The notes: generated from the letters alone by a model not told the origin. Positions 16,179 through 40,164 are shown, numbered from the stretch's first letter. The stretch: 47,805 bases of DNA from Pseudobdellovibrionaceae bacterium (GCA_947374445.1 CANCBY010000001.1:1-47805); one strand, 5' to 3'. Made by a program: numbers and translations.

Positions 16179-16211
16179 CAAGGTCAATTTTTTGCCGAAA
16201 GGCTCTACTGT

Positions 16212-24881: not shown

Positions 24882-26366
24882 ATGAAAATGTCTCGAGATC
24901 ACATAATACTCAGTATCAATGGCCGTCAGCATGAGATTCGTGGTGAGCATGCATTTATGAATCTGTCGGAATACTTGCGTTACCAAGCAGGGCTTGCAGG
25001 AACAAAAATTGTCTGTGCTGAGGGTGATTGTGGAGCTTGTTCGGTCTTGGTGGCGAAGACTAGTGATCCAATACGTGATCAGCCTGTAAAGTTCAAGAGT
25101 ATCAACTCTTGTATTCAGCCTGTTTTTAATTTGGATGGTTGCATAGTTGTCACGGTTGAGGCGTTGGCATCAGCCAAAGAGTTGAGCGCTGTTCAACAGT
25201 CGATGGTCGATCAGCAAGGGGCTCAATGCGGATATTGCACTCCCGGGATTTGCATTTCGCTTAGTTACCTAAAGGAACAGACTGGCGGAACTGCGGAAGA
25301 GATTATACCATCCAAAGCGAAAAATTTTTTGACCGGAAATCTCTGCCGATGCACGGGTTACGAGCCGATCATTAAAGCGGCTTGCGGATTGGTCGACGTA
25401 AAAGAGAGTTCACTGAGTAAAAGGTTTCTAACGGCTTCTCAAGTATCGACGCTAAAAGGTGCAACACAAACTGATGTCTATTTTGGGTTTAATAGACCAG
25501 GCCTTGAGCCCATCGAGGTTTGGATACCATCAAGCAAAGAGTCTTTGTTTGGCATGCTTGGCAAGGGGCGATTGATTTCGGGTGCAACGGACTTGGGAGT
25601 CCAGCGCAACAAAGGGCGTCTCGGTGAATCACGATTTATCTCTTTGCAAAAAATAGCGGAGCTAAAGCAGGCCGTAGTAACAAATGGTTTATTACGAATT
25701 GGAGCAGGTCTGACTTGGGATCAGGTGCAAGATTTTTTGCAGGATGATTTTTCTGACTTTGCAGATTCTATAAATTTATTTGCTTCGCCGCAGATTAAGC
25801 ATATTGGAACCTTGGCCGGAAATATTATCAATGCCTCACCCATTGCCGACGGGGTGCCTTTTTTGCTGGTGAATGAAGCGGAGCTTTTGTTGCTCGGGTC
25901 TGGTGGCAAAGAAAGGCGAGTGCCGATTTCTGATTTTTACCAGGGTTATAAAAAGATAGGGATGGCTTCTGATGAGATTTTGTGGGCTGTTCTCTTGCCA
26001 AAAAATAAATTAAAACAAAGAGTGTATAAAGTTTCTCAACGCAAAGATTTAGATATCGCGACGATCAATTTGGCGATTGCATATGAACTTAAAGAAGGAG
26101 TTTTTTCTCATTTGAAACTGGCCTTTGGCGGTGTTGCAGAGACTTCACTGCGAATGACATCTATTGAGAGTCTTGCCCTTGGCCGCAAACCTGATGCATT
26201 GTTTGTCGCTGATTGTGCCAAGGCCATTGATCTTGCACTCAGGCCTTTGAGTGATGTCAGAGGCTCGTCTAAATACCGCATGCTATTAGCAAAGAACCTC
26301 ATCCAAAAATGGGTTGTAGAAATTGATTTAGAATCTCAGCAAAATGTGAATGAGGCGAATGTATGA
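24882..26366 (+). CDS. xdhA: xanthine dehydrogenase small subunit (2Fe-2S plus FAD-binding domains)
   Basis: CAEGDCGACSV, CGYCTPG and CRCTGY iron-sulfur motifs, followed by an FAD-binding/CO-dehydrogenase flavoprotein domain (GATDLGV...). Overlaps xdhB by 4 nt. Confidence 0.9.
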   Translation: MKMSRDHIILSINGRQHEIRGEHAFMNLSEYLRYQAGLAGTKIVCAEGDCGACSVLVAKTSDPIRDQPVKFKSINSCIQPVFNLDGCIVVTVEALASAKELSAVQQSMVDQQGAQCGYCTPGICISLSYLKEQTGGTAEEIIPSKAKNFLTGNLCRCTGYEPIIKAACGLVDVKESSLSKRFLTASQVSTLKGATQTDVYFGFNRPGLEPIEVWIPSSKESLFGMLGKGRLISGATDLGVQRNKGRLGESRFISLQKIAELKQAVVTNGLLRIGAGLTWDQVQDFLQDDFSDFADSINLFASPQIKHIGTLAGNIINASPIADGVPFLLVNEAELLLLGSGGKERRVPISDFYQGYKKIGMASDEILWAVLLPKNKLKQRVYKVSQRKDLDIATINLAIAYELKEGVFSHLKLAFGGVAETSLRMTSIESLALGRKPDALFVADCAKAIDLALRPLSDVRGSSKYRMLLAKNLIQKWVVEIDLESQQNVNEANV

Positions 26367-28699
26367 AGCACGGGCATTCTTCAGCTCATGACTCCGCTGT
26401 TTCGCATGTGACGGGTCAGAGCCAGTATGTCGACGACAGGCAAATGTTGAAAAATGAGCTTTTAGTTGGCTATGTCACAGCCAAAGTGGCTTGTGGCAAA
26501 ATCCAGAATATTGACTTTTCGAAGGCGTTGAAAGTTCCTGGCGTTGTTTGTGTTTTAACCGCGAGTGATCTGGCTCACAATAATTGGGGTACCATTGTTC
26601 AGGACCAACCGCTTTTAGCTCAAAGCCAGGTGGAATATTTTGATGAGCCTGTCGCGATTGTTGCGGCAGAGAGTGAGCAGGCATTGTCTTTGGCTAAAAA
26701 AATGATTTTGGTTGAGATTCAAGCTCTGCCTGCAGTTTTGACGATTCAAGAAGCTGTGAACAAAAAGATGTTTCTTTCGGTGGCCGAGCCCTTTATCAAA
26801 GGTGATTTCAATCAGGCTATGGCTGTGGCTCCACACAAACTTAAGGGAGAGCTCTCTCTTGGCGGTCAAGAGCATTTTTACATGGAGAATCAAGCTGCAG
26901 TTGTTTACTCCTCAGAGAACGGACATTTTGAAGTTCATTCTTCGACTCAACATCCAACCGAAACTCAGCATGTTGTAGCTAAAGCCTTAGGTATTGAATT
27001 CCATAAAGTGACTTGCATCGTAAAACGCTTGGGCGGTGGCTTCGGTGGTAAAGAGTCTCAGGCAGCTCCGATGGCAGCCATGGCTGCACTGGTCGCGCAA
27101 AAGACAGGTCGGGCTGCGCGTATGGTTCTCACCAAAGATGAAGACATGAAGATCACCGGTAAACGTCATCCATTTTGGCATCGCTACGAAATCGGTTTTG
27201 ACGAAAATGGAAAAATTCAAGCCGCCCGCTTTGAATTGTATGCTGACGGGGGCGCTTACACCGATCTTTCGCCTTCGATTTTAGAGCGAGCAATGTTTCA
27301 TGTAGATGGAGCTTATTATCTACCGAATGTAGAAATTTATGCGGCCTGCTGTAAAACCAACACTTATTCAAACACTGCTTTTCGTGGTTTTGGCGGCCCT
27401 CAAGGAACTTTTTTAATTGAGAGCTTGCTAGAGGACATTGCTGTTTTTTTAAAAAAAGACTCTTTCGATATTCGCACTTTGAACTCATATCAAGGTGATC
27501 GTAATTTGACTCCTTACGGGCAAAAGATTGAGCAAAATCCCTTGCCTGAGATTTTTTCAAAGCTGCGAAAGTCTTCAGATTATGATTCTCGACGCCAAGA
27601 GATTTTAAAGTTTAACTCCAAAGATAAATTTAAGCTTCGGGGTTTGTCGATGACAGCGACAAAGTTTGGCATTGCATTTACCGCGAGATTTTTAAATCAG
27701 GGCAATGCCTTAGTGAATTTGCATGTAGACGGAACGGCGCAGGTTTCAACCGGTGCTGTCGAAATGGGGCAGGGAGTAAATACTAAGATCTGCCAGTTGG
27801 TCGCTGAGGTTTTTGGTATTGATTCAAAAAAGATTTCCGTGATGACCACGTCGACGGAAAAAAATGCCAACACTTCTCCCACGGCCGCATCGAGCGGTGC
27901 TGATATTAATGGAGCTGCAGCGGTCAAGGCGGCGCAGGCGATCCGCCAGCGTTTAGCTCGATTGGCCGAAATGTATTTTGCGGGACAAACTTTTGATGCT
28001 TTGAATGAGTATCAGCTTTCGCAGAGTGCTGAAAATTTATCGCATTTTATTTTCAAAGAGGGTCAAGTGCATTGCACGCGAACAAATCAGAAAATTATTT
28101 TTTCTGATTTGTTAAAGAAAGCCCATTTGAATCGAATTTCCCTTTCCGAGTACGCTCATTTTAAGACCGAAGGGCTTGGTTTCGATAAAAAAACGATAAC
28201 AGGAACGCCATTTAAGTATTTTACTTTTGGAGCGGCTGTCACAGAAGTTGAGATTGATCGCTTCACTGGCGAAAGCAAAGTGCTTCGAACAGACATTTTG
28301 ATGGATCTGGGGCGGAGTCTTAATCCTGCCATTGATCGAGGACAGACCACGGGTGCGTTTGTACAAGGTTTGGGTTGGGTGCTTCTCGAGAAGCTGTATC
28401 ATAATACTTCAGGTGAGTTGCTTTCGCATTCGCCAACAACCTACAAAATTCCGAATGTTCAAGATACACCTCGAATATTTAACGTGGACTTTATTGAAGC
28501 CTATAAAGCTGAGGGCGTAGGTATCGGCGCTAAGGCTGTTGGGGAGCCACCTTTTTTGTTGGGTATTAGTTGCTGGACAGCAGTAAAAAATGCCTTGGCG
28601 GGGTTGGAGTCGTCGCGGCGTCCTGACTTTTCAAGTCCGGCAACCGGGGAAGTAATTCTGTTTGAAATAGAAAGGCTTAAAAGTGAGTCTTCGCTTTGA
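26363..28699 (+). CDS. xdhB: xanthine dehydrogenase molybdopterin-binding subunit
   Basis: Aldehyde oxidase/xanthine dehydrogenase a/b-hammerhead and MoCo domains: RLGGGFGGKE, NTAFRGFGGPQG, VEMGQGVNTK, VGEPPFLL. Confidence 0.92.
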   Translation: MKHGHSSAHDSAVSHVTGQSQYVDDRQMLKNELLVGYVTAKVACGKIQNIDFSKALKVPGVVCVLTASDLAHNNWGTIVQDQPLLAQSQVEYFDEPVAIVAAESEQALSLAKKMILVEIQALPAVLTIQEAVNKKMFLSVAEPFIKGDFNQAMAVAPHKLKGELSLGGQEHFYMENQAAVVYSSENGHFEVHSSTQHPTETQHVVAKALGIEFHKVTCIVKRLGGGFGGKESQAAPMAAMAALVAQKTGRAARMVLTKDEDMKITGKRHPFWHRYEIGFDENGKIQAARFELYADGGAYTDLSPSILERAMFHVDGAYYLPNVEIYAACCKTNTYSNTAFRGFGGPQGTFLIESLLEDIAVFLKKDSFDIRTLNSYQGDRNLTPYGQKIEQNPLPEIFSKLRKSSDYDSRRQEILKFNSKDKFKLRGLSMTATKFGIAFTARFLNQGNALVNLHVDGTAQVSTGAVEMGQGVNTKICQLVAEVFGIDSKKISVMTTSTEKNANTSPTAASSGADINGAAAVKAAQAIRQRLARLAEMYFAGQTFDALNEYQLSQSAENLSHFIFKEGQVHCTRTNQKIIFSDLLKKAHLNRISLSEYAHFKTEGLGFDKKTITGTPFKYFTFGAAVTEVEIDRFTGESKVLRTDILMDLGRSLNPAIDRGQTTGAFVQGLGWVLLEKLYHNTSGELLSHSPTTYKIPNVQDTPRIFNVDFIEAYKAEGVGIGAKAVGEPPFLLGISCWTAVKNALAGLESSRRPDFSSPATGEVILFEIERLKSESSL

Positions 28700-29474
28700 A
28701 GCCTATATAGAAAAATATCAAGAGCTCAAAGCTTTGCGTTTGGATTTTGTCACGGTCACATTGGTGAAGATTCTCGGAAGTGCTCCGCAAGATCTCGGTG
28801 CTCGGATGATTGTGTCTCACGAGGGTCTTTTCTGGGGCACAGTCGGCGGCGGAAAAATTGAAAATCACATGATTAAAAAAGCGCAGGAGCTGTTATTCAA
28901 GCCCGGTCTTTATTTGCAGGAGCTCGAAGTTAATCTGCAAAATGATATCGGGATGAGTTGCGGAGGCGCTGTAGGTTTTTTGCTCGAAGCCGAGCGGGCC
29001 GACAGCCTCTGGTCGATTGCAGTTTTTGGGGCAGGGCACGTTGCGCAAGAGCTGATTCCACTTTTGTTGCCGCTTGAGGCTCGTATTCAATGCTTTGACA
29101 CTCGAAAAGAGTGGATTGATAGGCTGCCAACAGCGGCTCATTTATCGAAGTCCCTGGTCGAAGATATGGCTGGGCAAGTTGCAGCTCTTTCTGAGAAGAC
29201 ATTTCTAGTCTCAATCACGATGGGGCACAGTTCAGATTTGCCAATTTTAGATAAGGCTCTTCAAAGAAAGTTTCCTTTTATTGGAGTGATCGGAAGTGAG
29301 CTTAAAGCAAAAAAGCTAGCTCAAGAGCTTTTGTCTTTAGGCCACGCCGAGCAAAGCGTTTCAAGAATGGTATGCCCTTTGGGGTTAAAACTAGGGACCA
29401 ATGCTCCTTATGAAATAGCCGTGAGTATTTTAGCGCAGTTGATTCAGGAGAGAGACAAGAGTTTGCTCGAATAG
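28683..29474 (+). CDS. xdhC: xanthine dehydrogenase accessory (MoCo insertion) protein XdhC
   Basis: XdhC/CoxI layout: VTLVKILGSAPQDLGARMIV...GTVGGG N-domain, then Rossmann-like IAVFGAGHVAQEL. GTG start overlaps the xdhB end. Confidence 0.85.
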   Translation: MSLRFEAYIEKYQELKALRLDFVTVTLVKILGSAPQDLGARMIVSHEGLFWGTVGGGKIENHMIKKAQELLFKPGLYLQELEVNLQNDIGMSCGGAVGFLLEAERADSLWSIAVFGAGHVAQELIPLLLPLEARIQCFDTRKEWIDRLPTAAHLSKSLVEDMAGQVAALSEKTFLVSITMGHSSDLPILDKALQRKFPFIGVIGSELKAKKLAQELLSLGHAEQSVSRMVCPLGLKLGTNAPYEIAVSILAQLIQERDKSLLE

Positions 29475-29479
29475 TTAGT

Positions 29480-30757
29480 TTAAGAACTTCGGGCCAAAGT
29501 GCAAAGTTGATCACATCTGTCATTGTAGAAATGACCTCTGTGAGCTGGTATCCAAGTCCACTCGATTTTTATTTTTTCGGTCGCTGCATTTAATTTCAGG
29601 ATAAAATCGATATCAGGGATAGGTTTTCCATTTTTTTTTACCCAGCCGTTGTTTTTCCAGGCCGGCGCTTTTTGGATTGCAATCTCTGTTAGGACTCTTG
29701 AATCGGTGTAGAGGCGAACGTTTTTTTTGCGCAAGTTTTTTTGTTGAAAATGAGCGCATGTTTCAAGATAGGTGAGCGCTTCAATAGCAGCCTGAATTTC
29801 CATTCTTAGCGAAGTTGTTGGTGCAATGACGCGATCTGAGGACTCATGTACAACTTGATTGTTAACTAAGACCAGGTAGGCCCAGCTGCCAACATTATTC
29901 TTAAGGCTGCCATCGGTGTAGATTTGAATGGACGATGCTTGCGCTAGGCGGGTCGACAAAAGTGTCAGTGGAAATTTGAGAGCCTTAGCCAGCCATGAAT
30001 TTTCAGAAATCACCGATCCAAAAAATGGAGCTACCACGTAGTAGAACGATGTTAAAAATCGTCCAGCAAAATGCTTTTCAAGAACGTCATCTCGAAACTC
30101 TCTGAGTGCAAGAACTTCGGGCGCAAAAGTATTACCAAAAACTGCTGTGGCGACAAAGCAACTTTTGCCGCCTCCGAGTTCTTTATTTAGCTGCTTGTAG
30201 AGAGCTGGATTTTTTGAAGTGCGCGCTGCAATTCGTGCCTTTCGTGCCATAGTTGGAACGAAGCTTGTGTCTTTAATCAAAGCTGAAAATTCAGAACAAA
30301 TCTGTGCCTGCTGTTCTGGTTGGCCACGATCATAGATGGCAATTAAATCCCACAGCACAAAGAGGTACGTGGTGAACTCATCTGACTTGCCCATTTCGTC
30401 AAATATTTTTTGATTTAGTTCGCTTCGGGGTTTACCAAAAGTCTCTTCGAGAACTTTAATGTAATTCAAATAATGAAGTAGGGACTCGTCATAGTTGTAG
30501 TCTTTAAAAGCCATTATTCCGGCTTTGACGTAATCGCCTCTTGAGCGCCAGAGAATCATTTTTTTGAGCTCTTTGGGGTCGACCTTGTTTTCAATTAAGC
30601 TTGGTGTTGCCAAGAGCTGACTGAAAATATTTCGACAGGACTCGCAGGCTCTCGAAAAAACGGCGTCGGCCGACTGTTGAGTCAGCAGGCCATCTCGCAC
30701 CTCAGGGGGTACGAGTGCACATGTTTCGGTTTCAGAATGACAGCGAGGACATTTCAT
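29480..30757 (-). CDS. multidomain protein: N-terminal 4-Cys zinc ribbon, helical region, CFVATAVFG-motif module, C-terminal RNase HI domain
   Basis: CPRC...CESC at the N-terminus. CFVATAVFGNTFAPEVLALREFRDDVL in the middle. C-terminal RNase H with DEDD contexts IYTDGS, RMEIQAAIEAL, LYTDS and HFYNDRCDQL. Confidence 0.7.
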   Translation of the reverse strand: MKCPRCHSETETCALVPPEVRDGLLTQQSADAVFSRACESCRNIFSQLLATPSLIENKVDPKELKKMILWRSRGDYVKAGIMAFKDYNYDESLLHYLNYIKVLEETFGKPRSELNQKIFDEMGKSDEFTTYLFVLWDLIAIYDRGQPEQQAQICSEFSALIKDTSFVPTMARKARIAARTSKNPALYKQLNKELGGGKSCFVATAVFGNTFAPEVLALREFRDDVLEKHFAGRFLTSFYYVVAPFFGSVISENSWLAKALKFPLTLLSTRLAQASSIQIYTDGSLKNNVGSWAYLVLVNNQVVHESSDRVIAPTTSLRMEIQAAIEALTYLETCAHFQQKNLRKKNVRLYTDSRVLTEIAIQKAPAWKNNGWVKKNGKPIPDIDFILKLNAATEKIKIEWTWIPAHRGHFYNDRCDQLCTLARSS

Positions 30758-30822
30758 CGGACTTAAAGTCTAATCTGCAGAGTCGGCAACTTCAAGTTCG
30801 ACTTCGAGTTTTGCCTCTCAGG

Positions 30823-32100
30823 TTACTTGTCTTTCTGATTGTAATTCTGGTTGTAGCTCTGGCTGTCTTTTGGTTTTACTTTGGCGAATTTATCGATGAA
30901 GTGTTGGGTCATAGCTTCGACATCTTGCTTCCAAGTTTTAAGTGGAATTCTAGACACAAGATTGGTCCAGGCCTCAGGTTGTTGCACGGCTCTTGAGTGG
31001 ATAAATCCAAGCGCGTAGGCTTCATAATAAATTACATCACGATTTTCCTTCAAGGTCTTGTCATCTAAGGCTTTATCTGGATCTAGCTGAAGATCAAATC
31101 CAATATTGCCCCAAAACTTTGGACGTAGAATAAACTCTTGATCACGAATCGTTACTCCCTTGAACCAGGGCGAAGGGTTTAGTCCCTGTGTCACCCAGAG
31201 AGTATTGTTGATGCGCTCAAGAGCTGCTGGAACCTCTTGTGTTCTCATCACGGCGACCGCAGGAGCGATCAGTTTTTTCATCTCAAGATGGAGAGGGACT
31301 CCGTTGTTATTAACAAGTATCTCAAAGCGCAAAAGGCCCGATGAACCACCGCCGACTTTGTGAGTTGAAACCATATCTAGGATTTTCACGTTGGGAGAAA
31401 GCACACCTGAAAGACTTGCTAGGCCTGCCTTGATTTGCTGGACTTGGTCAGGCGTGACCTCGCGCATGTAAGGATCGCGAAGGATGCGGGTGCCAGAAAT
31501 TCGGGAAGGATTTGGAAAAGTTCCTCGCTCGCGGCTTTTAGCGGTCATCTTTTTGATCGGATCTGGAATGTCGATCACGCTGCGACGAAGTCCTGATATG
31601 TAAGACTCAATCATTTTTTCAAGCTTTACAGTCGATTCGTCGGCGCCAAGTTTTGAGCCCGGAGTTGTCACGGTCTCGTAAAGGCGGGTGCTGACCATCA
31701 AGCGGAACATATCAAGAACGATCGGGCAGGGGCCGGAGTCATCCATGTCATTGACAGAGAAGAGGTTGGCTCCATTACCCATTATGAGAACGCCAAAATT
31801 TTCAGGATGAGCATCGCCAACGCACCAGCCTGGAACGAGTCCCGCCGCTTGCATTACTTGCAAAGATCTTTGATTGACCATAGTCAGTGCGTAAAAATAG
31901 TCCACATAGCTGCGTAAAAAATGAAAAGAGTCATTGGCCGCGTTAAGTTTTTCTAGGTCTTTGCCAAAATCGTAGGGAACATCTTGTATTTTTATGGTGT
32001 CGCCATCCGCTTTTGCAGAGCTTGGTGCAAAACAAAAACTGCTGCTAATAACAAAAGAAAGCAAGATTGAGAGGGTCAGGGGAGAGATTTTCGCTAACAT
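30823..32100 (-). CDS. DUF2252 family protein with a signal peptide
   Basis: Signal peptide LTLSILLSFVISSSFCFA. WCVGDAHPENFGVLI matches the DUF2252 GD.H..NFG core. Confidence 0.65.
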   Translation of the reverse strand: MLAKISPLTLSILLSFVISSSFCFAPSSAKADGDTIKIQDVPYDFGKDLEKLNAANDSFHFLRSYVDYFYALTMVNQRSLQVMQAAGLVPGWCVGDAHPENFGVLIMGNGANLFSVNDMDDSGPCPIVLDMFRLMVSTRLYETVTTPGSKLGADESTVKLEKMIESYISGLRRSVIDIPDPIKKMTAKSRERGTFPNPSRISGTRILRDPYMREVTPDQVQQIKAGLASLSGVLSPNVKILDMVSTHKVGGGSSGLLRFEILVNNNGVPLHLEMKKLIAPAVAVMRTQEVPAALERINNTLWVTQGLNPSPWFKGVTIRDQEFILRPKFWGNIGFDLQLDPDKALDDKTLKENRDVIYYEAYALGFIHSRAVQQPEAWTNLVSRIPLKTWKQDVEAMTQHFIDKFAKVKPKDSQSYNQNYNQKDK

Positions 32101-32456
32101 AAAATTCCTGTCCTTTGAGGGTTCTTTTTACCCCATCGTGGGTTTTTAAGAAGACGATGCGAAGTTCCTGCCAAGTACCTGTTAAGACGAGGCTAATCTT
32201 AGGGTTGGTTTGAGCCTCAGTTCAAGTCTAAATTGGAACTGCCAGAGTTTTTGTGCATATAAGTGCATTCGCTTACTGTGGGCCCTGTCATGCGGGCAAC
32301 TCAGGGACGCAAATTGGCACCGTAATTGACGCCGCGAATGTTTAGAGAGTGTTAGAGAATGTACCAGAAATACCCAGCGATGACTCTCTGCAGATGAGCT
32401 CGCGGTAATGCCGATAATCATTACCCCTTTAAGGGCTGAACAGCTAGGCTGTCGGC

Positions 32457-33584
32457 ATGCAAAGGTATGAGTATTATGCCCCTCATCTAGAGAGGGTCAG
32501 TCGCAGTTTTTCATTTTGTATCGCTCGACTTGAAGGACGGTTTAGAGATCAAGTTGGGCTTTCCTATTTGATCTTGAGGGTTTTAGATACGATTGAAGAT
32601 GCTCCTTGGAAGAGCTTTGAATTGCAGCAAGTGTCTTTTGAGACATTCAATGCTTTTATTCTGGAAACTTTAGCTCAGGATTCTCTTTCTAAAAAAATAG
32701 ATCAAGACCAATGGCTCCAGTGGGTTCAGTCTTTTCCTAGCGACATTGCCGAACACGAAGGAACGCTTTTACGAGATTCTCAGATTCTTTTTCAAGACCT
32801 TGCAAATACGGAAGTTCGAGCTCGCAAGGCCATTATTGATTCGATATTGAACATGAGTCGAGGGATGATGTTTTTTCAGTCTCAGTTCCGGGACAAAATA
32901 AAAAATAAAAACAGAATTCAAATCGCTTCTTTAGCTGAGCTCAATGGCTATTGTTTTTTTGTCGCCGGAGTTGTGGGCGAGCTATTGACAGAGTTGCTTA
33001 TTGTTCAGAGTCAAGATTTCGTATCTAATTCAAAAGTTTTTTCATATGCTGTTCAATTTGGTCTTTTTCTGCAAAAAATAAATATTCTCAAAGATCAGAT
33101 GACCGACGAAAAAGAGGGGCGGCTGTTGATTCAGTCAAGACTCGAAGTCCTCTCAAGTTTAAAAAAAGATCTTGAAGGTGCTTTTGAGTATTTAAAATCT
33201 ATTCCAAAATCAGAAGTTGGCTACAGGCTTTTTTGTGGTTGGTCATTGTTTGTTGGACTTGAGTCTTTGCCGTGGATACAGAAAAGTTGGGCGTTAAAAA
33301 TTTTAGACAAAATTCCACGAGCCTTTACTCGAAGCATTCTGAGCGAGATTGAAAAAATTATTTTAGATGATGACGCTTTGATGGAAAAATACTTGAGTCT
33401 TAAAGATTTTATTCCAGATACTTTGATGTCTGAAAAAAATAGCAGCGCAGTTATAGTTTCTGAAGGTTCTGAAGCTATAGCTTCTAACTGGATCAGTTCT
33501 GAGGCTTTTTTGCAGTTGTATCATGGTCGATTGCAAATTGAACAGCTGGCACTTCTAGAGATTTTGCCGGGGTCACAAGCGTAA
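32457..33584 (+). CDS. squalene/phytoene synthase family protein (eukaryote-type squalene-synthase-like)
   Basis: SRSFSFCIARLEGRFRDQVGLSYLILRVLDTIEDA (first Asp-rich motif DTxED) and INILKDQMTDEKEGR (second Asp-rich region), resembling SQS NIIRDYLED..GR. Confidence 0.65.
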   Translation: MQRYEYYAPHLERVSRSFSFCIARLEGRFRDQVGLSYLILRVLDTIEDAPWKSFELQQVSFETFNAFILETLAQDSLSKKIDQDQWLQWVQSFPSDIAEHEGTLLRDSQILFQDLANTEVRARKAIIDSILNMSRGMMFFQSQFRDKIKNKNRIQIASLAELNGYCFFVAGVVGELLTELLIVQSQDFVSNSKVFSYAVQFGLFLQKINILKDQMTDEKEGRLLIQSRLEVLSSLKKDLEGAFEYLKSIPKSEVGYRLFCGWSLFVGLESLPWIQKSWALKILDKIPRAFTRSILSEIEKIILDDDALMEKYLSLKDFIPDTLMSEKNSSAVIVSEGSEAIASNWISSEAFLQLYHGRLQIEQLALLEILPGSQA

Positions 33585-33615
33585 TTTGAGATCGAGCACT
33601 GGGCATGGAGGAAGT

Positions 33616-33948
33616 TTGATTAGCACACATATTTTGGACACAAGTAAAGGGCAGCCAGCTTCAGGCGTAGAGGTCTCGTTAGAAAAAAAGCAAGGTGCTC
33701 AGTGGGAGTTGGTTGATCAGCAGCGAACTAATATTGATGGTCGAGTTGTGTTTAACTGTGGCTTTCACCCGGGATTCTACCGTCTGAATTTTCAAACTGA
33801 GGCCTATTTTAAGAAGACTCTCGGGACTTCTTTTGCATCGTTTTTTGCAGATGCTATTGTTCAGTTTAATATCGAGGACACTAAAAGAAAATATCATATC
33901 CCATTGCTTCTAAATCCTTTTGGGTACAGCACCTACCGGGGGAGCTAG
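33616..33948 (+). CDS. uraH: 5-hydroxyisourate hydrolase (transthyretin-like)
   Basis: (M)ISTHILDTSKGQPASGVEV..., and the diagnostic C-terminal tetrapeptide YRGS. TTG 33616 follows GGAGGA; the ORF-track TTG 33586 is also possible. The stop TAG shares its G with the GTG start of the next gene. Confidence 0.85.
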   Translation: MISTHILDTSKGQPASGVEVSLEKKQGAQWELVDQQRTNIDGRVVFNCGFHPGFYRLNFQTEAYFKKTLGTSFASFFADAIVQFNIEDTKRKYHIPLLLNPFGYSTYRGS

Positions 33949-36900
33949 TGAACTCAGTTTTTTTTGAGATCGAAGCATTCCATCAGTTTTTAGCTCCTCG
34001 GCTGGCTCGCAAAATTTTAAGTGACGCTATTCAGGTTTCTGCCGTGGATGGGCTTTGTTTGACTCAGCCGCCTTCAGGGCTTGAAACAACAGAATCTCTG
34101 CAATTTCTTTGTGACGTCTATTTGCAAACCAAATCGCAGTTAAAAACAGTGCTTCGCCAGCGCGCAAAGGATAGAGATTTTTTAGATGAACGAGTGGCCG
34201 CTTGTTATCAGTTCAATAAAGAGCGTAGCTACGATATCACAAATCCTCATGCGCGCTCAGTGATTGGTCTTGAGGATGGCAGTGGACGTGTTGTTTTTGG
34301 TCCGTTGCAGACTAACTACTTTACAGTAAACTCAAGCAAAGCAAAAATAGCTCCTTTGCCAGATTGGCTGCAGGGTCCTCATGTGACTCTCTTTGGGCCT
34401 CCGGACAACGCAAAAATGGCGATCAATGCCATGAATAGCTTCCATCGCAAACTCAAATCAGAACCGCCAATTGTTGAAGAGCTTTTAGCGCAAAATAATT
34501 GTTCGCCCTTCTGGGGGGCTGATGACGAGGATTCAAAAACTCCTCTTCACGTAGATTTGGTTGCTGCAGGTGAGAACCTCACGGCCTGTTTTAAAAATAC
34601 ACTTTGTCTTGAAGAGGGTCCGAAGAGGTATTCTCTTGCGAAAGATCATCTTGCAAAACCACTTAAGCGTTTTGCGGGCTTGGCATTGCCTGCAAGTTTT
34701 GCTTTCTATAAAAAAAACCCTCTCCCGCTTCATCTTTATGATTTTGCTCTGCATGTCTTTCATAATTGGGACAATCCTCAAGCTTTGGCGTTCTATGTCC
34801 CTAAATTAGAAAACGAAGAAGAGGCTGCGTATATTCATCACATGATTCAAGTCACAGAGGTGCTTCTTAAAAAGCTCCATCCGCAGTATGTGCTTGGAAC
34901 AATTCGCGTGATGGTAGTACTTGAAAACCCAAGAGCTATTTTGCGTTTGCATGAAATTATGGATAGTCTTTATCCTTATTTTGCAGGCGCGTCGCTTGGT
35001 TGGCATGATTACTTGGCATCGACGGCCCGAATTTTTAAAAATGACGGTCGCTATCGAATTCCGGTCAAAGCAGATCCAGAGATTGTGATCAAGTACATAA
35101 AGGCCTCTCATCATTTATTGGCCGATGTTGTGGGTTCTCGCGGTGGGATTAAAGTCGGCGGCATGTACGGAATTCTTCCTCAGCTGGATGAGCTCGATCC
35201 GACTTTGTCTCAACAGTCGTTTCAGGTGACGCTACGGGGTTTTTTTAAAGATGTGATCACGCAATTGAAGCGAGGCTTGAATGGATTTTGGGTGGCTCAC
35301 CCTGATTTTGTTCGCCTAGGGCTCGCGCTTGTAAAAGCCTGGGATCTTCATGTGGCGGGAGACTCTTTGCCAATTAAAAAGTTGGTTGAGGGCTTGCTTC
35401 CACGTCAATTTCAGAACGAGATCGAAAAGTTTATTTTTGCAGAGGACATAAAAGGACTCGATTCATCAGATCCTCAGTTTGTACGCTCATTGCTTGTGGC
35501 AAATATTAAAAAATCTGAATTTATAGCAAACAATCATCCAGATGAAATTCGCTACAACGTATTTCAGACCTTGCAGTATCTGACTGATTGGCTGAGCGGG
35601 CGTGGTTGTGTGGCGCTTCCAACAAGTATTGATGGCGTGGCTGTGCGAGTGATGGATGATTTGGCCACGGCCGAGCGATCACGCTGGGAGGTTTGGCACG
35701 AGCTTTATCACGGCCGTTTTTTGCTAGAAGATTTTTTAGTGATCGCGGCCGAAGAACTGCATTTTATTCGCAAGAATTTAACTCAAGGTCACAAGTCAGT
35801 TCAGGTTCAGTGGAATGAACGAACGGCCAAGTGGTATCCGGTGGCCTATCATTTAATGATCAAGCTGATGACGGATAAAAATCCTGCCGAGTTTGCCACG
35901 GAGCTTTTGTTGCCGTTTACAGTCGATCACATCAGAAATACCGATGAGCCTTTGGTGGCCTTACAAAAAATTGACCCAGAAAAAATTCGTCTTTTGCCAA
36001 ACGTAGAAAGATTTTTGCAAGGTTTTGAAGCTTGCGGGTCTAAGCGTTGGGCCAGCGCTCTGTCTCAGGATCTCATATTTGATAATTCAAAAGCCGAAGC
36101 CTTGATTAAATCATTTAGTTTTGAAGAGGTAAAAGAAGCCGCTCGATTTCACGGAGATATCGGCGAGAAAAAAGCGACTCTGGACGCTCATGCTTCAAAA
36201 GAGCAGGCCCTCGTTTTTTCTGAAGCCGAGAGTCTTCGCAAAGAACTTCAGGATCTGGGTTCAGAGTATTTAAATAGATTTGGGATAAAGTTTTTGGTTT
36301 CTGCCCAAGGCTTATCTGGGGGAGCTTTGCTCAGTCTTCTTAAAACGCGAAGCTTAAACTCGCTAGAGAGAGAGTTAGAGTTAGCTCGAGAAGCACTTTG
36401 GTTGATTGCAAAAAAAAGAATCACCAGTCGAAATAATGTCGATCTCTTTCAGAAAATTGAAAGCCTAAGACAAAGGTACTCTGTTAAAGCGGCAGGTCTT
36501 TGCATTTTGAATCAGGGACTGACTCAAGAATTAGCCCTTGGCGATGCTCGGGTTCACACCCATTTTCAAATAGCTTCATTGAGTAAGTCCATAGCTTCAG
36601 CCGTTGCTTTGCAATACTTTGAAAGTAAGGGGATTTCACTCTCCACATCGGTGAATCAGCTTCTTACTCAAAGTGGATCTGCTTATCGTATCGAGGCTGT
36701 TGCAGGAGTCGATGCCAGTGAAGTCAAGCTTGCTCATCTTATCAGCCATGCGGCGCTCAACATGCATTATGTCAATGGCATTAAGTCGGGTGAGCCAAAG
36801 CCTTCAGTTGCAGCTCTCGTCGGTGGAAGTGAAAAATACTCTTACCAGCGAGTGATGGCGATCAATCCTCCTGGGCAAAAATTTCAGTATTCGGGTGGGG

Positions 36901-38642
36901 GATTTTTAGTTCTTGAGCATCTGTTAGAGTCCTTGGAGTCAAAGCCGATTCAAGAGATTATTTCTCCGTATCTCGCGGCGATGGGGCTTAAAAATTTGGG
37001 TTGTGGTCAATCTGTTTTTGAAACAGCCAAAGGCTATTTTGATGACGGCAAAATGGTTTCGGGTGGGGGATTCCAGTTTCCATTGTTTGCAGCGGGGATG
37101 ACGTCTGATGCTAAAACAGTAGCGCAATTTCTGCGGGGGCTTGAATTAGCCTATAAAAATCTTCAAGGCTCTGCAGGAATATCACATGATTCGGCTGTAG
37201 AGATGCTTCACGGAACCGATCGCGGCTGCCAAAAATTTATGGGTTGCTTGATGGGGCTGGGGATTTTTGTTGCTGAAGCGGGCCCCAATAAAATGATGTT
37301 GCATCAAGGGTCTAACGAGGGCTTTCGAGCCTTATTTTTGCATTGTTATGCGGGTCCAGATGCAGGCAAAGGCATGGTTCTTTTGTGCAATGCTGACAAC
37401 CAAGGTTTGAGATTTATTGCCGAGACGGCGCAAGAACTGTTGAAAGCTTTCGAATTTCAAGGAATCAATTTTGATCTCTTTAGGCATCATTTCGATGCCA
37501 GCCTTTTTTCTCAAGAACAGATCGTAAATATGGGTTACAAGCAGTTAATTTTTTCAGCGTTTGAGCCCACTTTGCCTGAAAAAATTTTAGTTCATGGTCC
37601 GGTGAATTCGATGTCGCGTTTTGATATCTTGTCCGAGGCTAAAGTCATTTCTGTGACCAATCAAAAATTTGCAAGGGCTGAAAATCTTATCAGCCCCTTT
37701 GAGCCCACCTTTGACCCAGAGCTTTTTGGCCAGCAAGGCAAAGTGATGGACAGTTGGGAGTCAGTTCGTCACAACACATTGGAGTGCGACGAGGTTGTAT
37801 TTGAGCTGCAAAAGCCTTCATCGGTGAATTACATTTTTATTTCTACAAAATTTCACGACGGCAATCAGGCTGAATTTGTGAGGATTTTGGGTCTAATTGA
37901 AGCTAAGGTTGAGATTGATGCCGCTGGTTCTGAAAAGTGGATCGAGATTCTGCCAAAAGTACAAATGTTAGGACATTCATTTCGAAAAATAAGACTTGCA
38001 TCACCTACATCTATTTTCTCTCGCATTAAGATTCAAATGCAACCCGATGGGGGGCTTACACGAGTGGGTCTCTATCGAGAGTTTTCGATTTTAGATCGTG
38101 AAGGATTTGAAGCCCTTGAAAAAAGCAAATGCGTCCGATTTGCTGAGGCTATTCCTAAAGCACAAAAACCCTTGAGTCTTTCTTATGTGCCCGCGGCTAT
38201 TGATAAAAATAAAACTTCGCGAAAAAATCTTGCAAGTCTTGCTGAAGGCGCAAAGATGCTCTCGGCAACGAACGAGCATTATGGTCCTGCGATTCAGTTG
38301 CTTTCGCCGTTTGCGCCGCTCAATATGTTTGACGGAATTGAGTCCGCTCGCAGTCGCAAGCCAGGGCACTTTGAAGAGGTTATCGTCGCTCTCAGCGAAA
38401 TAAGCACCGTGAGTGAAGTTGTTTTGGATTTTAAATATTTTGTGAATAACAACCCTCTTTTTGTAGAAATCGAAGCGCTCTCAGTAACAAGTGGCTGGGT
38501 GTCTTTGGTTAAAAAAACTCAAGTGAAAGCATTTGCAGGAAATCAAAAATCGTTTTTTGTTAGCAACAACGATCAATTCACCCAAATTAGATTAAAGACA
38601 TTGCCTGACGGCGGAATCAACAGACTCTTTGTTTATGAATGA
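33948..38642 (+). CDS. 1564-aa four-module fusion: malate synthase-like (about aa 1-680), OHCU decarboxylase (about aa 685-830), beta-lactamase-fold serine hydrolase (about aa 850-1190), allantoicase (about aa 1210-1564)
   Basis: Malate synthase A-like: LYDFALHVFHN, FYVPKLENEEEA, TIRVMVVLEN, GGMYG, GFWVAHPDFV, VMDDLATAERSRWEVW. OHCU decarboxylase: CGSKRWA, EAARFHGDIGE, SKEQ, YLNRFGIKFLVSAQGLSG, ELELAREALWLIAKKRI. Serine hydrolase: ASLSKS (Ser877-x-x-Lys), HYVNG (YxN), LHQGS (HxG). Allantoicase repeats: QQGKVMDSWESVRHN, FHDGNQAEF, MQPDGGLTRVGLY and TLPDGGINRLFVY. No stop codon across 4695 nt. Confidence 0.85.
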   Translation: MNSVFFEIEAFHQFLAPRLARKILSDAIQVSAVDGLCLTQPPSGLETTESLQFLCDVYLQTKSQLKTVLRQRAKDRDFLDERVAACYQFNKERSYDITNPHARSVIGLEDGSGRVVFGPLQTNYFTVNSSKAKIAPLPDWLQGPHVTLFGPPDNAKMAINAMNSFHRKLKSEPPIVEELLAQNNCSPFWGADDEDSKTPLHVDLVAAGENLTACFKNTLCLEEGPKRYSLAKDHLAKPLKRFAGLALPASFAFYKKNPLPLHLYDFALHVFHNWDNPQALAFYVPKLENEEEAAYIHHMIQVTEVLLKKLHPQYVLGTIRVMVVLENPRAILRLHEIMDSLYPYFAGASLGWHDYLASTARIFKNDGRYRIPVKADPEIVIKYIKASHHLLADVVGSRGGIKVGGMYGILPQLDELDPTLSQQSFQVTLRGFFKDVITQLKRGLNGFWVAHPDFVRLGLALVKAWDLHVAGDSLPIKKLVEGLLPRQFQNEIEKFIFAEDIKGLDSSDPQFVRSLLVANIKKSEFIANNHPDEIRYNVFQTLQYLTDWLSGRGCVALPTSIDGVAVRVMDDLATAERSRWEVWHELYHGRFLLEDFLVIAAEELHFIRKNLTQGHKSVQVQWNERTAKWYPVAYHLMIKLMTDKNPAEFATELLLPFTVDHIRNTDEPLVALQKIDPEKIRLLPNVERFLQGFEACGSKRWASALSQDLIFDNSKAEALIKSFSFEEVKEAARFHGDIGEKKATLDAHASKEQALVFSEAESLRKELQDLGSEYLNRFGIKFLVSAQGLSGGALLSLLKTRSLNSLERELELAREALWLIAKKRITSRNNVDLFQKIESLRQRYSVKAAGLCILNQGLTQELALGDARVHTHFQIASLSKSIASAVALQYFESKGISLSTSVNQLLTQSGSAYRIEAVAGVDASEVKLAHLISHAALNMHYVNGIKSGEPKPSVAALVGGSEKYSYQRVMAINPPGQKFQYSGGGFLVLEHLLESLESKPIQEIISPYLAAMGLKNLGCGQSVFETAKGYFDDGKMVSGGGFQFPLFAAGMTSDAKTVAQFLRGLELAYKNLQGSAGISHDSAVEMLHGTDRGCQKFMGCLMGLGIFVAEAGPNKMMLHQGSNEGFRALFLHCYAGPDAGKGMVLLCNADNQGLRFIAETAQELLKAFEFQGINFDLFRHHFDASLFSQEQIVNMGYKQLIFSAFEPTLPEKILVHGPVNSMSRFDILSEAKVISVTNQKFARAENLISPFEPTFDPELFGQQGKVMDSWESVRHNTLECDEVVFELQKPSSVNYIFISTKFHDGNQAEFVRILGLIEAKVEIDAAGSEKWIEILPKVQMLGHSFRKIRLASPTSIFSRIKIQMQPDGGLTRVGLYREFSILDREGFEALEKSKCVRFAEAIPKAQKPLSLSYVPAAIDKNKTSRKNLASLAEGAKMLSATNEHYGPAIQLLSPFAPLNMFDGIESARSRKPGHFEEVIVALSEISTVSEVVLDFKYFVNNNPLFVEIEALSVTSGWVSLVKKTQVKAFAGNQKSFFVSNNDQFTQIRLKTLPDGGINRLFVYE

Positions 38643-38700
38643 AGAGACAAAAGACCTTTGAGTCGATAGATTGTTAAGATAATAGAAGGGCTTAAAAAAG

Positions 38701-38958
38701 ATGACGAATAACGACATATTTAAAAAACTCCGGGTCGCGCTCTCATTCAAAGACACGGATATCATCGAGTGCTTGGCTTTGGTTGATTATAATATTTCAA
38801 AGAGCGAGCTCTCGGCCATTTTTCGGGCTGAAGACCATCCGAACTATCAAGAGTGCGGCGATCAATTGCTTCGCAACTTTTTAAATGGCTTGATCATCAA
38901 AAATCGTGGACCGATGCCGTCAGATAAAAAGGCTCCGCCATCCAATAAGAAATGGTAA
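38701..38958 (+). CDS. DUF1456 family protein (YehS-like)
   Basis: MTNNDIFKKLRVALSFKDTDIIECL...SELSAIFR...YQECGDQLLRNFLNGL is the typical DUF1456 repeat. Confidence 0.7.
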   Translation: MTNNDIFKKLRVALSFKDTDIIECLALVDYNISKSELSAIFRAEDHPNYQECGDQLLRNFLNGLIIKNRGPMPSDKKAPPSNKKW

Positions 38959-38970
38959 GCCCCAGAAGGT

Positions 38971-40164
38971 TTATTGGCCAACTTGGTGTTGGCTGATCCA
39001 ACTTGCGAGTATGGCTCGCTCTTCATCGGTGATTTTAGTTTTATTTATCAGCGGCATTGTTTTTGCGACAACGACCTGCTGGTAAAGCTGAGGAATCACT
39101 TTTAGCATCTGCTCTTCTGTTTCAAGAATGAGTCCCTTTGGAGGCTCGGTAAAAATGTCGTCAGTTGGATGGACTCCATGGCAGGCCAGGCATCGCGCTT
39201 GAACGATGGGATGTATTTGCGAATAAGTTACTAAATCCGACGAGCTGCTCCCGCGGTCAGCAATGGGCTGATTGGCAGTGATATAAATGAGTGCCAAAAG
39301 TCCTAAGGAAGCAGGCAGAAGAGTCCATCTCTCTTTGCTATTTTTAGTGACCATAGCGTGGCGAACCATCGCTCCAGAAATCAAAAGAACAATGAGAATC
39401 TGCCAATTATAAACGTGGTTGTAGAGTGCCGGATAATGGTTGCTGAGCATTATGAAAAGAACAGGAAATGTAAAATAGGTATTATGAACAGAGCGGGTCT
39501 TCGCCTTGACGCTGAATGAGTAATCAGGGACTCGTCCTTCGCTGGCATCAAAGACCATCTTTTTTTGTCCAGGTAATATGCGAACCCAAACATTCAAAAG
39601 CATCATTGTTCCGAGCATAGCTCCTGTTTGAATAAAAGCTCCGCGAGAGCTAAAAAAATGAAGATTAATCATGATAAAACCAAAGAGCAGACCAGCAGAT
39701 AAAAGAATATTGATAAACTTTGACTGAATGTACTTCCAGATACTGTCGTAAATCAGCCATCCAGATATAATCAGGCCTAGGCTTGTTGCAATGGCTTCTA
39801 GTTGGGTGAGTGAGGTCGTTGGATTAGAGGAATTAATGAGAAGACTTGCGCCCTTCAGATAATACAAATAAATTAAAAGTAAATAGCCCGTCATGACTGT
39901 GAGCGTGGCCTCCCACTTAAACCAGTGCAAAACCTTCGGCAGTTCTCCAGGATAGATTTTTTTCTTTTCGACTTGGTAGTAAAAGCCTCCATGTACCATG
40001 AAGAGTTCCCCATCGACGTTTCTTCTGGGTGTTTCTGGTGGAACAAAGGCGCTGTCGAGCCACATAAAATAAAAAGAACTACCAATCCACGCGATCCCAG
40101 CCACTAAGTGAGAGAAGCGAATCAAATACTCGACCCAAATATCAACACTGGAATAAAGCGACAT
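38971..40164 (-). CDS. puuD: integral-membrane cytochrome-c urate hydroxylase (PuuD / DUF989 type)
   Basis: The N-terminal RFSHLVAGIAWIGSSFYFMWLDS...FMVHGGFYY matches the DUF989 core. Multiple TM helices. The C-terminal soluble domain carries the heme-c motif CLACH. Lies in a purine-catabolic context. Confidence 0.75.
   Translation of the reverse strand: MSLYSSVDIWVEYLIRFSHLVAGIAWIGSSFYFMWLDSAFVPPETPRRNVDGELFMVHGGFYYQVEKKKIYPGELPKVLHWFKWEATLTVMTGYLLLIYLYYLKGASLLINSSNPTTSLTQLEAIATSLGLIISGWLIYDSIWKYIQSKFINILLSAGLLFGFIMINLHFFSSRGAFIQTGAMLGTMMLLNVWVRILPGQKKMVFDASEGRVPDYSFSVKAKTRSVHNTYFTFPVLFIMLSNHYPALYNHVYNWQILIVLLISGAMVRHAMVTKNSKERWTLLPASLGLLALIYITANQPIADRGSSSSDLVTYSQIHPIVQARCLACHGVHPTDDIFTEPPKGLILETEEQMLKVIPQLYQQVVVAKTMPLINKTKITDEERAILASWISQHQVGQ

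Follow-up and report, generated by a model that had tools for sequence, protein, structure and literature searches.

A four-module fusion protein as candidate core enzyme of urate degradation in a Bdellovibrionota-like bacterium

Introduction

The catabolism of the purine ring is a textbook pathway, yet for several of its steps different organisms are known to use enzymes that are unrelated to one another. Its route from urate to glyoxylate requires an allantoinase and a ureidoglycolate lyase (UGL). Here, we describe a gene that joins a malate-synthase-like (MS-like) module, a 2-oxo-4-hydroxy-4-carboxy-5-ureidoimidazoline (OHCU) decarboxylase module, a beta-lactamase-fold hydrolase module and an allantoicase module in one reading frame. 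The gene lies on a DNA stretch of 47,805 nucleotides from a Pseudobdellovibrionaceae bacterium (GCA_947374445.1, CANCBY010000001.1:1-47805), which was analyzed over its whole length and is called the window; unless a locus is named, coordinates are counted from its first letter.

The malate-synthase-like protein of zebrafish (DrMSL) was shown by experiment to be an (S)-ureidoglycolate lyase without malate synthase activity (Dembech et al., PNAS 2023, PMC10120013). DrMSL has a glyoxylate site that is preserved except for the substitutions Arg276Ile and Trp365Met, its acetyl-coenzyme A (acetyl-CoA) site is unconserved, its clade was described as restricted to eukaryotes, and a possible bifunctional malate synthase/UGL ancestor was proposed (PMC10120013). 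Genuine malate synthase genes are also found within ureide clusters, such as DAL7 of yeast and glcB in purine operons (PMC10120013). These two precedents were overlooked in a first reading made from the window sequence without database searches (the sequence-only reading), according to which no malate synthase was known to be joined to ureide enzymes.

The MS-like module of the fusion resembles DrMSL in its malate-synthase-A fold, its setting in purine catabolism next to an allantoicase, the retained glyoxylate site and the replacement of Arg276. However, DrMSL is a stand-alone, peroxisomal protein, whereas the module of the window is bacterial and fused to three other enzymes. Arg276 is replaced by Ile in DrMSL but by Trp in the fusion, Trp365 is Met in DrMSL but retained in the fusion, and the acetyl-CoA site, which is lost in DrMSL, is conserved in the main clade of the fusion and partly decayed only in two proteins (P0126 and P0139). 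Unlike the genuine malate synthases DAL7 and glcB, the fusion was never found with a dedicated AllA-type lyase nearby. The best match in both sequence and fold is malate synthase A of Escherichia coli (AceB, 3CUZ), with which the module shares the equivalents of Arg166, Asp447, Glu250, Asp278 and the CoA contacts, although it is ∼150 residues longer and contains insertions, including one of 8 residues before the MDDLATAE motif that holds the catalytic Asp.

A related arrangement is present in Sinorhizobium meliloti (locus L087), where a bifunctional PuuE allantoinase-OHCU decarboxylase is followed by alc and which shares uraH, xdhABC and puuD neighbors with the window. The two systems are alike in that a ring-opening hydrolase, in the fusion a candidate one, is joined to an OHCU decarboxylase and adjoins an allantoicase. 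The S. meliloti hydrolase is a PuuE of the polysaccharide-deacetylase fold placed ahead of the decarboxylase, whereas the hydrolase of the fusion has a beta-lactamase fold and is located between the OHCU decarboxylase and the allantoicase, with all four modules in one chain.

Two-domain ureide fusions (PuuE-UraD), ureide-linked genuine malate synthases and a malate-synthase-like lyase are already known. No description of the fusion protein or of a serine-type allantoinase was found in the searchable literature, nor were the tie of a beta-lactamase-fold clade to allantoicase and a bacterial MS-like module with the Arg276 change.

The fusion gene and its proposed role

On balance, the fusion protein appears to be the core enzyme of a compact system by which this Bdellovibrionota-like bacterium degrades urate. 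The gene and its four modules are located as follows.

33948..38642, + strand: four-module fusion gene, 1564 amino acids (aa), GTG start, TAA/TAG-type stop included (translation, Pfam, full-length homologues)
33948..35999, + strand: module 1, malate-synthase-A-like, residues 1-684, with N-terminal clasp, TIM barrel and C-terminal plug (Pfam, profile search)
36000..36425, + strand: module 2, OHCU decarboxylase of the HpxQ/UraD_2 type by family match, residues 685-826 (PF09349)
36426..37592, + strand: module 3, serine hydrolase of the class-C beta-lactamase/DD-peptidase fold, residues 827-1215, candidate allantoinase
37593..38639, + strand: module 4, allantoicase by family match, residues 1216-1564, repeats at ∼37638-38075 and ∼38208-38636

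The open reading frame (ORF) listing and the translation show 1564 codons without an internal stop, a run expected by chance with a probability of ∼3e-40 at 44% GC. The GTG start (33948-33950) shares one base with the TAG stop of uraH (33946-33948), and the junction reads ...GGGAGCTAGTGAAC. A GGGAG Shine-Dalgarno-like stretch is located 5' of this start, and the N-termini of 39 homologues line up with it. Every family detected by Pfam exceeded its gathering score, namely MS_TIM-barrel (residues 241-459, 68.5 bits vs. 26.4), MS_C (residues 532-652, 39.8 bits vs. 23.1), OHCU_decarbox (residues 714-825, 60.9 bits vs. 24), Beta-lactamase (PF00144, residues 835-1152, 63.9 bits vs. 27) and Allantoicase (PF03561, two repeats, 165 bits). 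The same families were recovered with NCBIfam, all under the equivalog cutoffs, which marks all four modules as divergent representatives of their families. The sequence-only reading had proposed a single gene with four recognizable modules, the start that shares a base with the uraH stop and the four named families, all of which were found. Its guessed junctions at ∼35990, 36450 and 37550 agree with the module boundaries derived from alignments at residues 684/685, 826/827 and 1215/1216 (nucleotides 35999/36000, 36425/36426 and 37592/37593). In an alignment of 40 sequences, to which all statements on invariance below refer, the catalytic motifs of the fusion were invariant, and the mean column conservation of modules 1 to 4 was 0.75, 0.63, 0.64 and 0.61, respectively, the MS-like module being the most conserved of the four. 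A promoter and terminator scan of positions 32000-39100 gave signals no higher than the shuffled expectation.

The placement of the gene in a purine-catabolism locus, as first read from the sequence, is borne out by the following neighbors.

33586..33948, + strand: uraH, 5-hydroxyisourate hydrolase (HIUase), 120 aa, C-terminal YRGS, Transthyretin family (E = 4.5e-32)
38971..40164, - strand: membrane urate oxidase of the PuuD type (397 aa; Urate_ox_N), transcribed towards the fusion gene
24882..29474, + strand: xdhA-xdhB-xdhC, xanthine dehydrogenase (XDH) and maturation factor (family match)

To compare gene neighborhoods, ORFs were called and clustered in the window and in 80 loci retained from a scan of one genome per species. 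Among these 81 loci, an HIUase gene is located immediately 5' of the fusion in 67, a PuuD-type urate oxidase is encoded in 60 and XdhC, XdhB and XdhA in 26-29, while no other conserved neighbor was observed.

In the proposed pathway, the urate oxidase (PuuD in the window) and the HIUase encoded by the overlapping upstream gene would yield OHCU, and the fusion protein would complete the remaining route on one polypeptide. The OHCU decarboxylase module is predicted from homology and its conserved catalytic residues to form (S)-allantoin. The beta-lactamase-fold module may then convert allantoin to allantoate by hydrolyzing the hydantoin ring, as pathway logic, gene context and domain fusions suggest; ring opening would proceed via an acyl-enzyme with Ser877-x-x-Lys880, Tyr941 and His1119-x-Gly, making this module a third, serine-type allantoinase. 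From homology, the allantoicase module would produce urea and (S)-ureidoglycolate. The MS-like module, finally, may free the second urea in the manner of DrMSL, may form malate from glyoxylate and acetyl-CoA, or may combine the two activities in a single active site. The order of the modules along the fusion differs from the order of the reactions. The fusion would hold the enzymes at equal stoichiometry and may limit the escape of unstable ureidoglycolate and toxic glyoxylate.

The assignment of modules 2 and 4 was assessed by alignment to UraD- and Alc-type structures. Module 2 contains FHGDIG (36147-36164), which holds the catalytic His, and was aligned to Klebsiella HpxQ (3O7H; FHGDIGEK...EQ vs. 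HPRIGEK...EQ) as well as to 5UOU, while its scores for TIGR03180/NF010372 (66-67 bits) are below the cutoffs of 124-139. His735, Glu752 and Arg824 of this module are invariant, and we take the catalytic roles of the His, the Glu and the C-terminal Arg to be those known from the zebrafish and Klebsiella structures. Both repeats of module 4 align to yeast allantoicase 1SG3 (E = 4e-34), and the TIGR02961 score of 177 bits does not reach the cutoff of 277.9.

The beta-lactamase-fold module

We searched the neighborhood of the fusion for the two steps that lack an obvious enzyme. E. coli AllA, AllB, AllC, AllE and AllD from locus L084 and S. meliloti PuuE from L087 were used as tblastn queries against the window and 83 loci (1.6 Mb in total). 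No match was obtained for AllA, AllC or AllE in these sequences, and PuuE matched only via its OHCU decarboxylase half, onto the fusion's own OHCU module. An AllB-like match at L052 was rejected as a dihydropyrimidinase (TIGR02033, 608 bits vs. a cutoff of 393) in a pyrimidine-catabolism cluster. Likewise, no module of the fusion showed homology to the AllB or PuuE families with Pfam or NCBIfam; the allantoinase role proposed for module 3 concerns its function and does not place it in either family. Since no gene for an allantoinase or a lyase was found near the tightly clustered system, two steps are left unassigned and two modules have no evident step, and it is probable that these two modules account for the allantoinase and the ureidoglycolate lyase steps.

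The catalytic motifs of module 3 are located as follows.

36576..36587, + strand: SLSK
36768..36776, + strand: YVN
37302..37310, + strand: HQG

Ser877-Leu-Ser-Lys880, Tyr941 and His1119-Gln-Gly1121 are invariant. An AlphaFold2 (AF2) model of the module built with 20 homologues reached a predicted local distance difference test (pLDDT) value of 90.8, and Foldseek matched it with a probability of 1.0 to 7SPN, 3PTE and class C enzymes, with template modeling (TM) scores of ∼0.6-0.7 and 14-20% identity. The matches comprise family VIII esterases, the R61 DD-peptidase, class C beta-lactamases, a D-amino-acid amidase and LACTB; a search of the PDB by sequence gave no match for module 3. The module shares with class C beta-lactamases, the R61 DD-peptidase and family VIII esterases (IS11, 7SPN) the fold and the Ser-x-x-Lys, Tyr and His/Lys-x-Gly motifs. 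However, it differs from them in this low level of identity, in the unconserved Asn of Tyr-x-Asn and in belonging to a clade that is defined by its fusion to, or co-occurrence with, ureide enzymes. To our knowledge, no member of the beta-lactamase fold hydrolyzes allantoin. Since opening the hydantoin ring amounts to hydrolyzing a cyclic amide, a Ser-x-x-Lys hydrolase that works through an acyl-enzyme would be chemically well suited to it.

The clade of module 3 was surveyed exhaustively among 1.84 billion representative proteins. Its members occur as four-module proteins, as hydrolase-allantoicase proteins (∼740-960 aa), as an OHCU-hydrolase-allantoicase protein (P0125) and as stand-alone proteins (∼400 aa). 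In the dinoflagellate Polykrikos kofoidii (P0175), the hydrolase is followed by an AllA-type ureidoglycolate lyase (PF04115, 114 bits) and the allantoicase. Proteins with only the hydrolase and the allantoicase were found in a Halobacteriovorax-like bacterium (P0279), the dinoflagellate Biecheleria cincta (P0131), the copepod Oithona nana (P0182/P0297) and an MMETSP protist (P0285/P0293), where the contig also holds a long terminal repeat (LTR) retroelement. The protein of Amoebophrya sp. A120 (P0190, CAD7956273.1) comprises the LDDLATLE plug of the MS-like module, the hydrolase and the allantoicase; because its start falls inside the plug (VLDDLATLERSRW), the 5' part of the gene is probably missing from this model. 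Two split bacterial versions, with the gene orders puuD-uraH-[MS-like]-[hydrolase-allantoicase] at L081 and uraH-[MS+OHCU]-[hydrolase] at L083, retain the order of the fusion modules.

Over all these architectures, each of the enzymes that act between OHCU and glyoxylate occurs in one chain with the hydrolase clade, and no allantoinase domain was found in any hydrolase-clade architecture examined. Taken together, the missing step, the gene context and the repeated fusion to ureide enzymes make module 3 a reasonably likely candidate for a new serine-type allantoinase unrelated to AllB and PuuE. The sequence-only reading had described the fused activities as non-consecutive steps with an unexplained serine hydrolase between them. 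This is probably wrong, as no allantoinase was found near the 83 loci and the hydrolase clade is fused to allantoicase elsewhere; with the hydrolase at the place of the needed allantoinase, the steps are probably consecutive.

The malate-synthase-like module

In a profile search against the PDB, module 1 aligned to E. coli malate synthase A over the full length of that enzyme (3CUZ, E = 1.9e-39). Foldseek on a mediocre model likewise gave 3cuz as the best match (TM 0.75), with isoform A first and isoform G next. The NCBIfam equivalog TIGR01344 scored 125.1 bits (cutoff 594.5), while the Pfam domain models PF01274/PF20659 pass. The following sites were located by alignment.

34668..34670, + strand: Arg241, equivalent of E. 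coli Arg166, invariant in 40 of 40 sequences
34998..35009, + strand: GWHD motif, residues 351-354, replacing GRWD of malate synthase A
35652..35675, + strand: MDDLATAE, residues 569-576, with Asp571 as the equivalent of the catalytic base Asp447

According to HMMER alignments, Arg166, Glu250, Asp278, Asp447 and Trp365 of the E. coli enzyme correspond to Arg241, Glu326, Asp354, Asp571 and Trp448 of the fusion, all of which are invariant. We take Glu250 and Asp278 to be the Mg2+ ligands of malate synthase A, with Glu326 and Asp354 as their equivalents. In the E. coli enzyme, Arg166 and Asp447 are annotated as the catalytic residues (PMC11347633), and the alignment to AceB suggested earlier places both in the fusion. 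The signature GLNxGRWDY is replaced by GASLGWHDY in all members, including representatives at 39-49% identity. Within it, Arg276 is changed to Trp352 (in 40 of 40 sequences) and Trp277 to His, while Asp278 is retained as Asp354, in agreement with the divergent GWHDY segment and the preserved context of the catalytic Asp that had been read from the sequence.

The acetyl-CoA contacts of the E. coli enzyme are Ile94, Thr95, Gly96, Met102, Met330, Pro369 and Cys438 (Bracken et al.). Their equivalents in the fusion are Leu148, Phe149, Gly150, Met157, Met406, Pro452 and Cys554, so that six of the seven are identical or conservative. Within the family, six of the seven positions are invariant and Met157 is Met in 31 sequences and Leu in nine. 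In the divergent lineages represented by P0126 and P0139, the adenine-pocket segment is degenerate and GWHD and the Arg/Glu/Asp residues are kept, a pattern that may point to the glyoxylate/ureidoglycolate site as the part of the module that stays constant. In its residues, the module is intermediate between malate synthase and UGL, with Arg276 replaced and Trp365 and the CoA pocket kept. It probably acts on ureidoglycolate, glyoxylate or both, and may do so as a lyase, a synthase or both.

Alternative readings

Several points weigh against the proposed role of the fusion. The roles of the modules are predictions from sequence, context and models. The tblastn search covered the flanks of the fusion genes, so that an allantoinase or an AllA-type lyase may be encoded elsewhere in the genome, and single-query searches can overlook divergent AllA or PuuE homologues. 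In module 3, the Asn of Tyr-x-Asn is variable, and one stand-alone member of its clade (L082) is located in a non-ureide context. The AF2 model of module 1, with a pLDDT of 66.6 and values below 50 at residues 352-385 and 553-572, was used for fold assignment only. The retained Trp365 and CoA pocket set the MS-like module apart from the eukaryotic lyase group, and a plain malate synthase role is possible, with the lyase step occurring spontaneously or via the allantoicase.

In the first alternative, three known activities (OHCU decarboxylase, allantoicase and a genuine malate synthase) share the chain with a serine hydrolase that is foreign to the pathway (an esterase, a peptidase or a regulatory domain), the allantoinase and the lyase being encoded elsewhere in the genome. 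It draws on the restriction of the search to flanks, on L082, on the genuine malate synthase genes of purine operons and the yeast DAL cluster, and on the catalytic Arg/Asp, Mg ligands and acetyl-CoA pocket that the MS-like module retains. We consider it unlikely. The hydrolase clade has repeatedly been fused to allantoicase in both bacteria and eukaryotes, once in a protein that already has an AllA-type lyase, which would be difficult to account for if the hydrolase were unrelated; the 1.6 Mb of sequence at the 83 loci yielded neither an allantoinase nor AllA, although the remaining pathway is tightly clustered; and Arg276 is replaced in all members.

As a second alternative, the MS-like module could be solely a ureidoglycolate lyase like DrMSL, and the fusion would then stop at glyoxylate and two urea. 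The published precedent of DrMSL, the substituted Arg276 and the lack of a nearby AllA-type lyase are consistent with this, as is the Polykrikos fusion, in which an AllA-type lyase accompanies the hydrolase and the allantoicase and the MS-like module is absent. The decayed adenine pocket of P0126 and P0139, with GWHD and Arg/Glu/Asp kept, points in the same direction. However, DrMSL types have no acetyl-CoA site and carry Trp365Met, whereas here Trp448 and six of seven CoA contacts are invariant and Met157 is exchanged for Leu at most; moreover, the MS-like module is the most conserved module. We therefore regard a role restricted to the lyase step as doubtful.

A more extensive version of the urate-degradation reading would unite a third class of allantoinases, one with a serine nucleophile that occurs in Bdellovibrionota and Planctomycetota and as far afield as dinoflagellates and copepods, with a bifunctional MS-like module, so that OHCU would be converted to malate on one polypeptide. 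The module would eliminate urea from ureidoglycolate and condense the retained glyoxylate with acetyl-CoA, and would thus be a living bacterial example of the postulated UGL/MS ancestor. As a joint claim, this is improbable.

If module 3 is a serine allantoinase, this would close gaps in the annotation of hundreds of bacteria as well as of some protists and animals, and the hydrolysis of cyclic ureides would be added to the chemistry of the penicillin-binding-protein fold. The MS-like module bears on the questions raised in 2023 of whether a bifunctional UGL/MS ancestor existed and whether the lyase originated only in eukaryotes, and a bacterial clade with the lyase-type Arg276 change and an intact CoA pocket is a directly assayable test case. 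The system also suggests how predatory bacteria may regain nitrogen (as two urea) and carbon (as malate) from the purines of their prey.

Distribution of the fusion

A search of 5.8 billion proteins (E <= 1e-10, clusters at 90% identity) gave 614 matches, the best 120 of which were inspected. All of these 120 are full-length, with the same five Pfam domains, 53-67% identity and a coverage of 94-100%, mostly 99-100%. The nearest relatives of the window's fusion share only 56-67% identity with it. Where database names are given, they read 'serine hydrolase', 'malate synthase' or 'allantoicase/malate synthase/CubicO peptidase'. The scan of one genome per species revealed a relative of the fusion in 304 species-level genomes, and full-length homologues overall, at 49-67% identity, occur in more than 120 protein clusters and in these 304 genomes. 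The four-module architecture, which had seemed unfamiliar, is thus not rare, with at least 120 clusters and 304 genomes, while the impression that it had not been described stood, no published account being found.

Approximately 65 of the 80 retained loci carry Bdellovibrionota names (Bacteriovoracaceae, Oligoflexales, Bdellovibrio-like bacteria and the cultured Oligoflexus tunisiensis) and seven carry Planctomycetota names, the remainder having doubtful bin labels. The architecture is accordingly found mostly in Bdellovibrionota and in some Planctomycetota, and a four-module-like protein is present in the eukaryote Amoebophrya.

An artefact of assembly, frameshift or gene calling that fused separate genes, to which the split versions at L081 (MS-like apart from hydrolase-allantoicase) and L083 (MS+OHCU, then hydrolase) and numerous ∼1000-aa database entries might point, has next to no probability, because the same uninterrupted frame recurs across the junctions in hundreds of independent assemblies, including that of the cultured O. 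tunisiensis and megabase contigs, most of the ∼1000-aa entries begin within the MS-like C-terminal plug and are truncated gene calls, and the 'intergenic' gap at L081 still holds an OHCU remnant. The hundreds of independent full-length homologues rule out an assembly artefact, as the check proposed for the junctions was meant to establish, and the fusion is a real, widespread gene.

The ∼1000-aa proteins were also rejected as three-module variants, since they mostly begin at positions equivalent to window residues 545-597, two of them exactly at Met569. Similarly, P0122 was rejected as a 'two-module' protein because it begins inside the last OHCU helix. P0125 begins right at the OHCU domain boundary, and P0161, which begins ∼35 residues before it, is ambiguous. 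The start of P0122 within the OHCU helix and the OHCU remnant at L081 suggest that decay or frameshifts may have produced some of the split versions.

Gene neighborhood

The PuuD of the window has 397 aa and Urate_ox_N alone, while its counterparts at related loci have a median length of 532 aa and a CarboxypepD_reg-like C-terminal domain. Four planctomycete-type loci encode a cofactor-less uricase in place of PuuD. In a divergent lineage (L088, 3247-7448; L089, 1912-6113), the place of XDH and PuuD ahead of the fusion is taken by a protein resembling a double cytidine/guanine deaminase, a dioxygenase of the TauD family, an HIUase and an HpxO-like protein (FAD_binding_3). The TauD-family protein could, we presume, be a XanA-like xanthine hydroxylase. 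With PuuD, uricase and HpxO types at different loci, three urate-oxidizing solutions therefore appear to feed one fusion.

Two further ORFs flank the uraH and fusion genes.

32457..33584, + strand: squalene/phytoene-synthase-like ORF, 375 aa (PF00494, 84.8 bits; TIGR01559, 86 vs. a cutoff of 287)
38701..38958, + strand: DUF1456 ORF, 85 aa, directly 3' of the fusion gene

The squalene/phytoene-synthase-like ORF ends 1 nucleotide short of uraH on the same strand, apparently in one operon. It probably stands outside the urate system, since none of the 80 other loci showed a counterpart of it beside the fusion. No further ureide genes were detected among the window ORFs scanned, which extended from position 10.5 kb to the 3' end. 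In four loci (L059, 14638-15711, and three others), an S1/P1 nuclease gene adjoins the fusion, an arrangement in keeping with predatory bacteria salvaging purines from the nucleic acids that they digest.

Elsewhere in the window, two 425-aa ORFs are located between xdhC and the uraH operon (29480-32100, - strand), one with a C-terminal RNase H domain and the other with an N-terminal DUF2252 match. At 13932-17357 (+ strand), a 748-aa ORF with DinB_2, FGE-sulfatase and C-terminal S-adenosylmethionine (SAM)-methyltransferase domains is followed by an ORF of the class-V aminotransferase fold, a set that we take to resemble the ovothiol synthase OvoA and its partner, a lyase dependent on pyridoxal phosphate (PLP). 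A 524-aa ORF of glycosyl hydrolase family 14 (beta-amylase, E = 9.5e-95) follows at 17357-18931 (+ strand), and its start shares one base with the stop of the aminotransferase gene.

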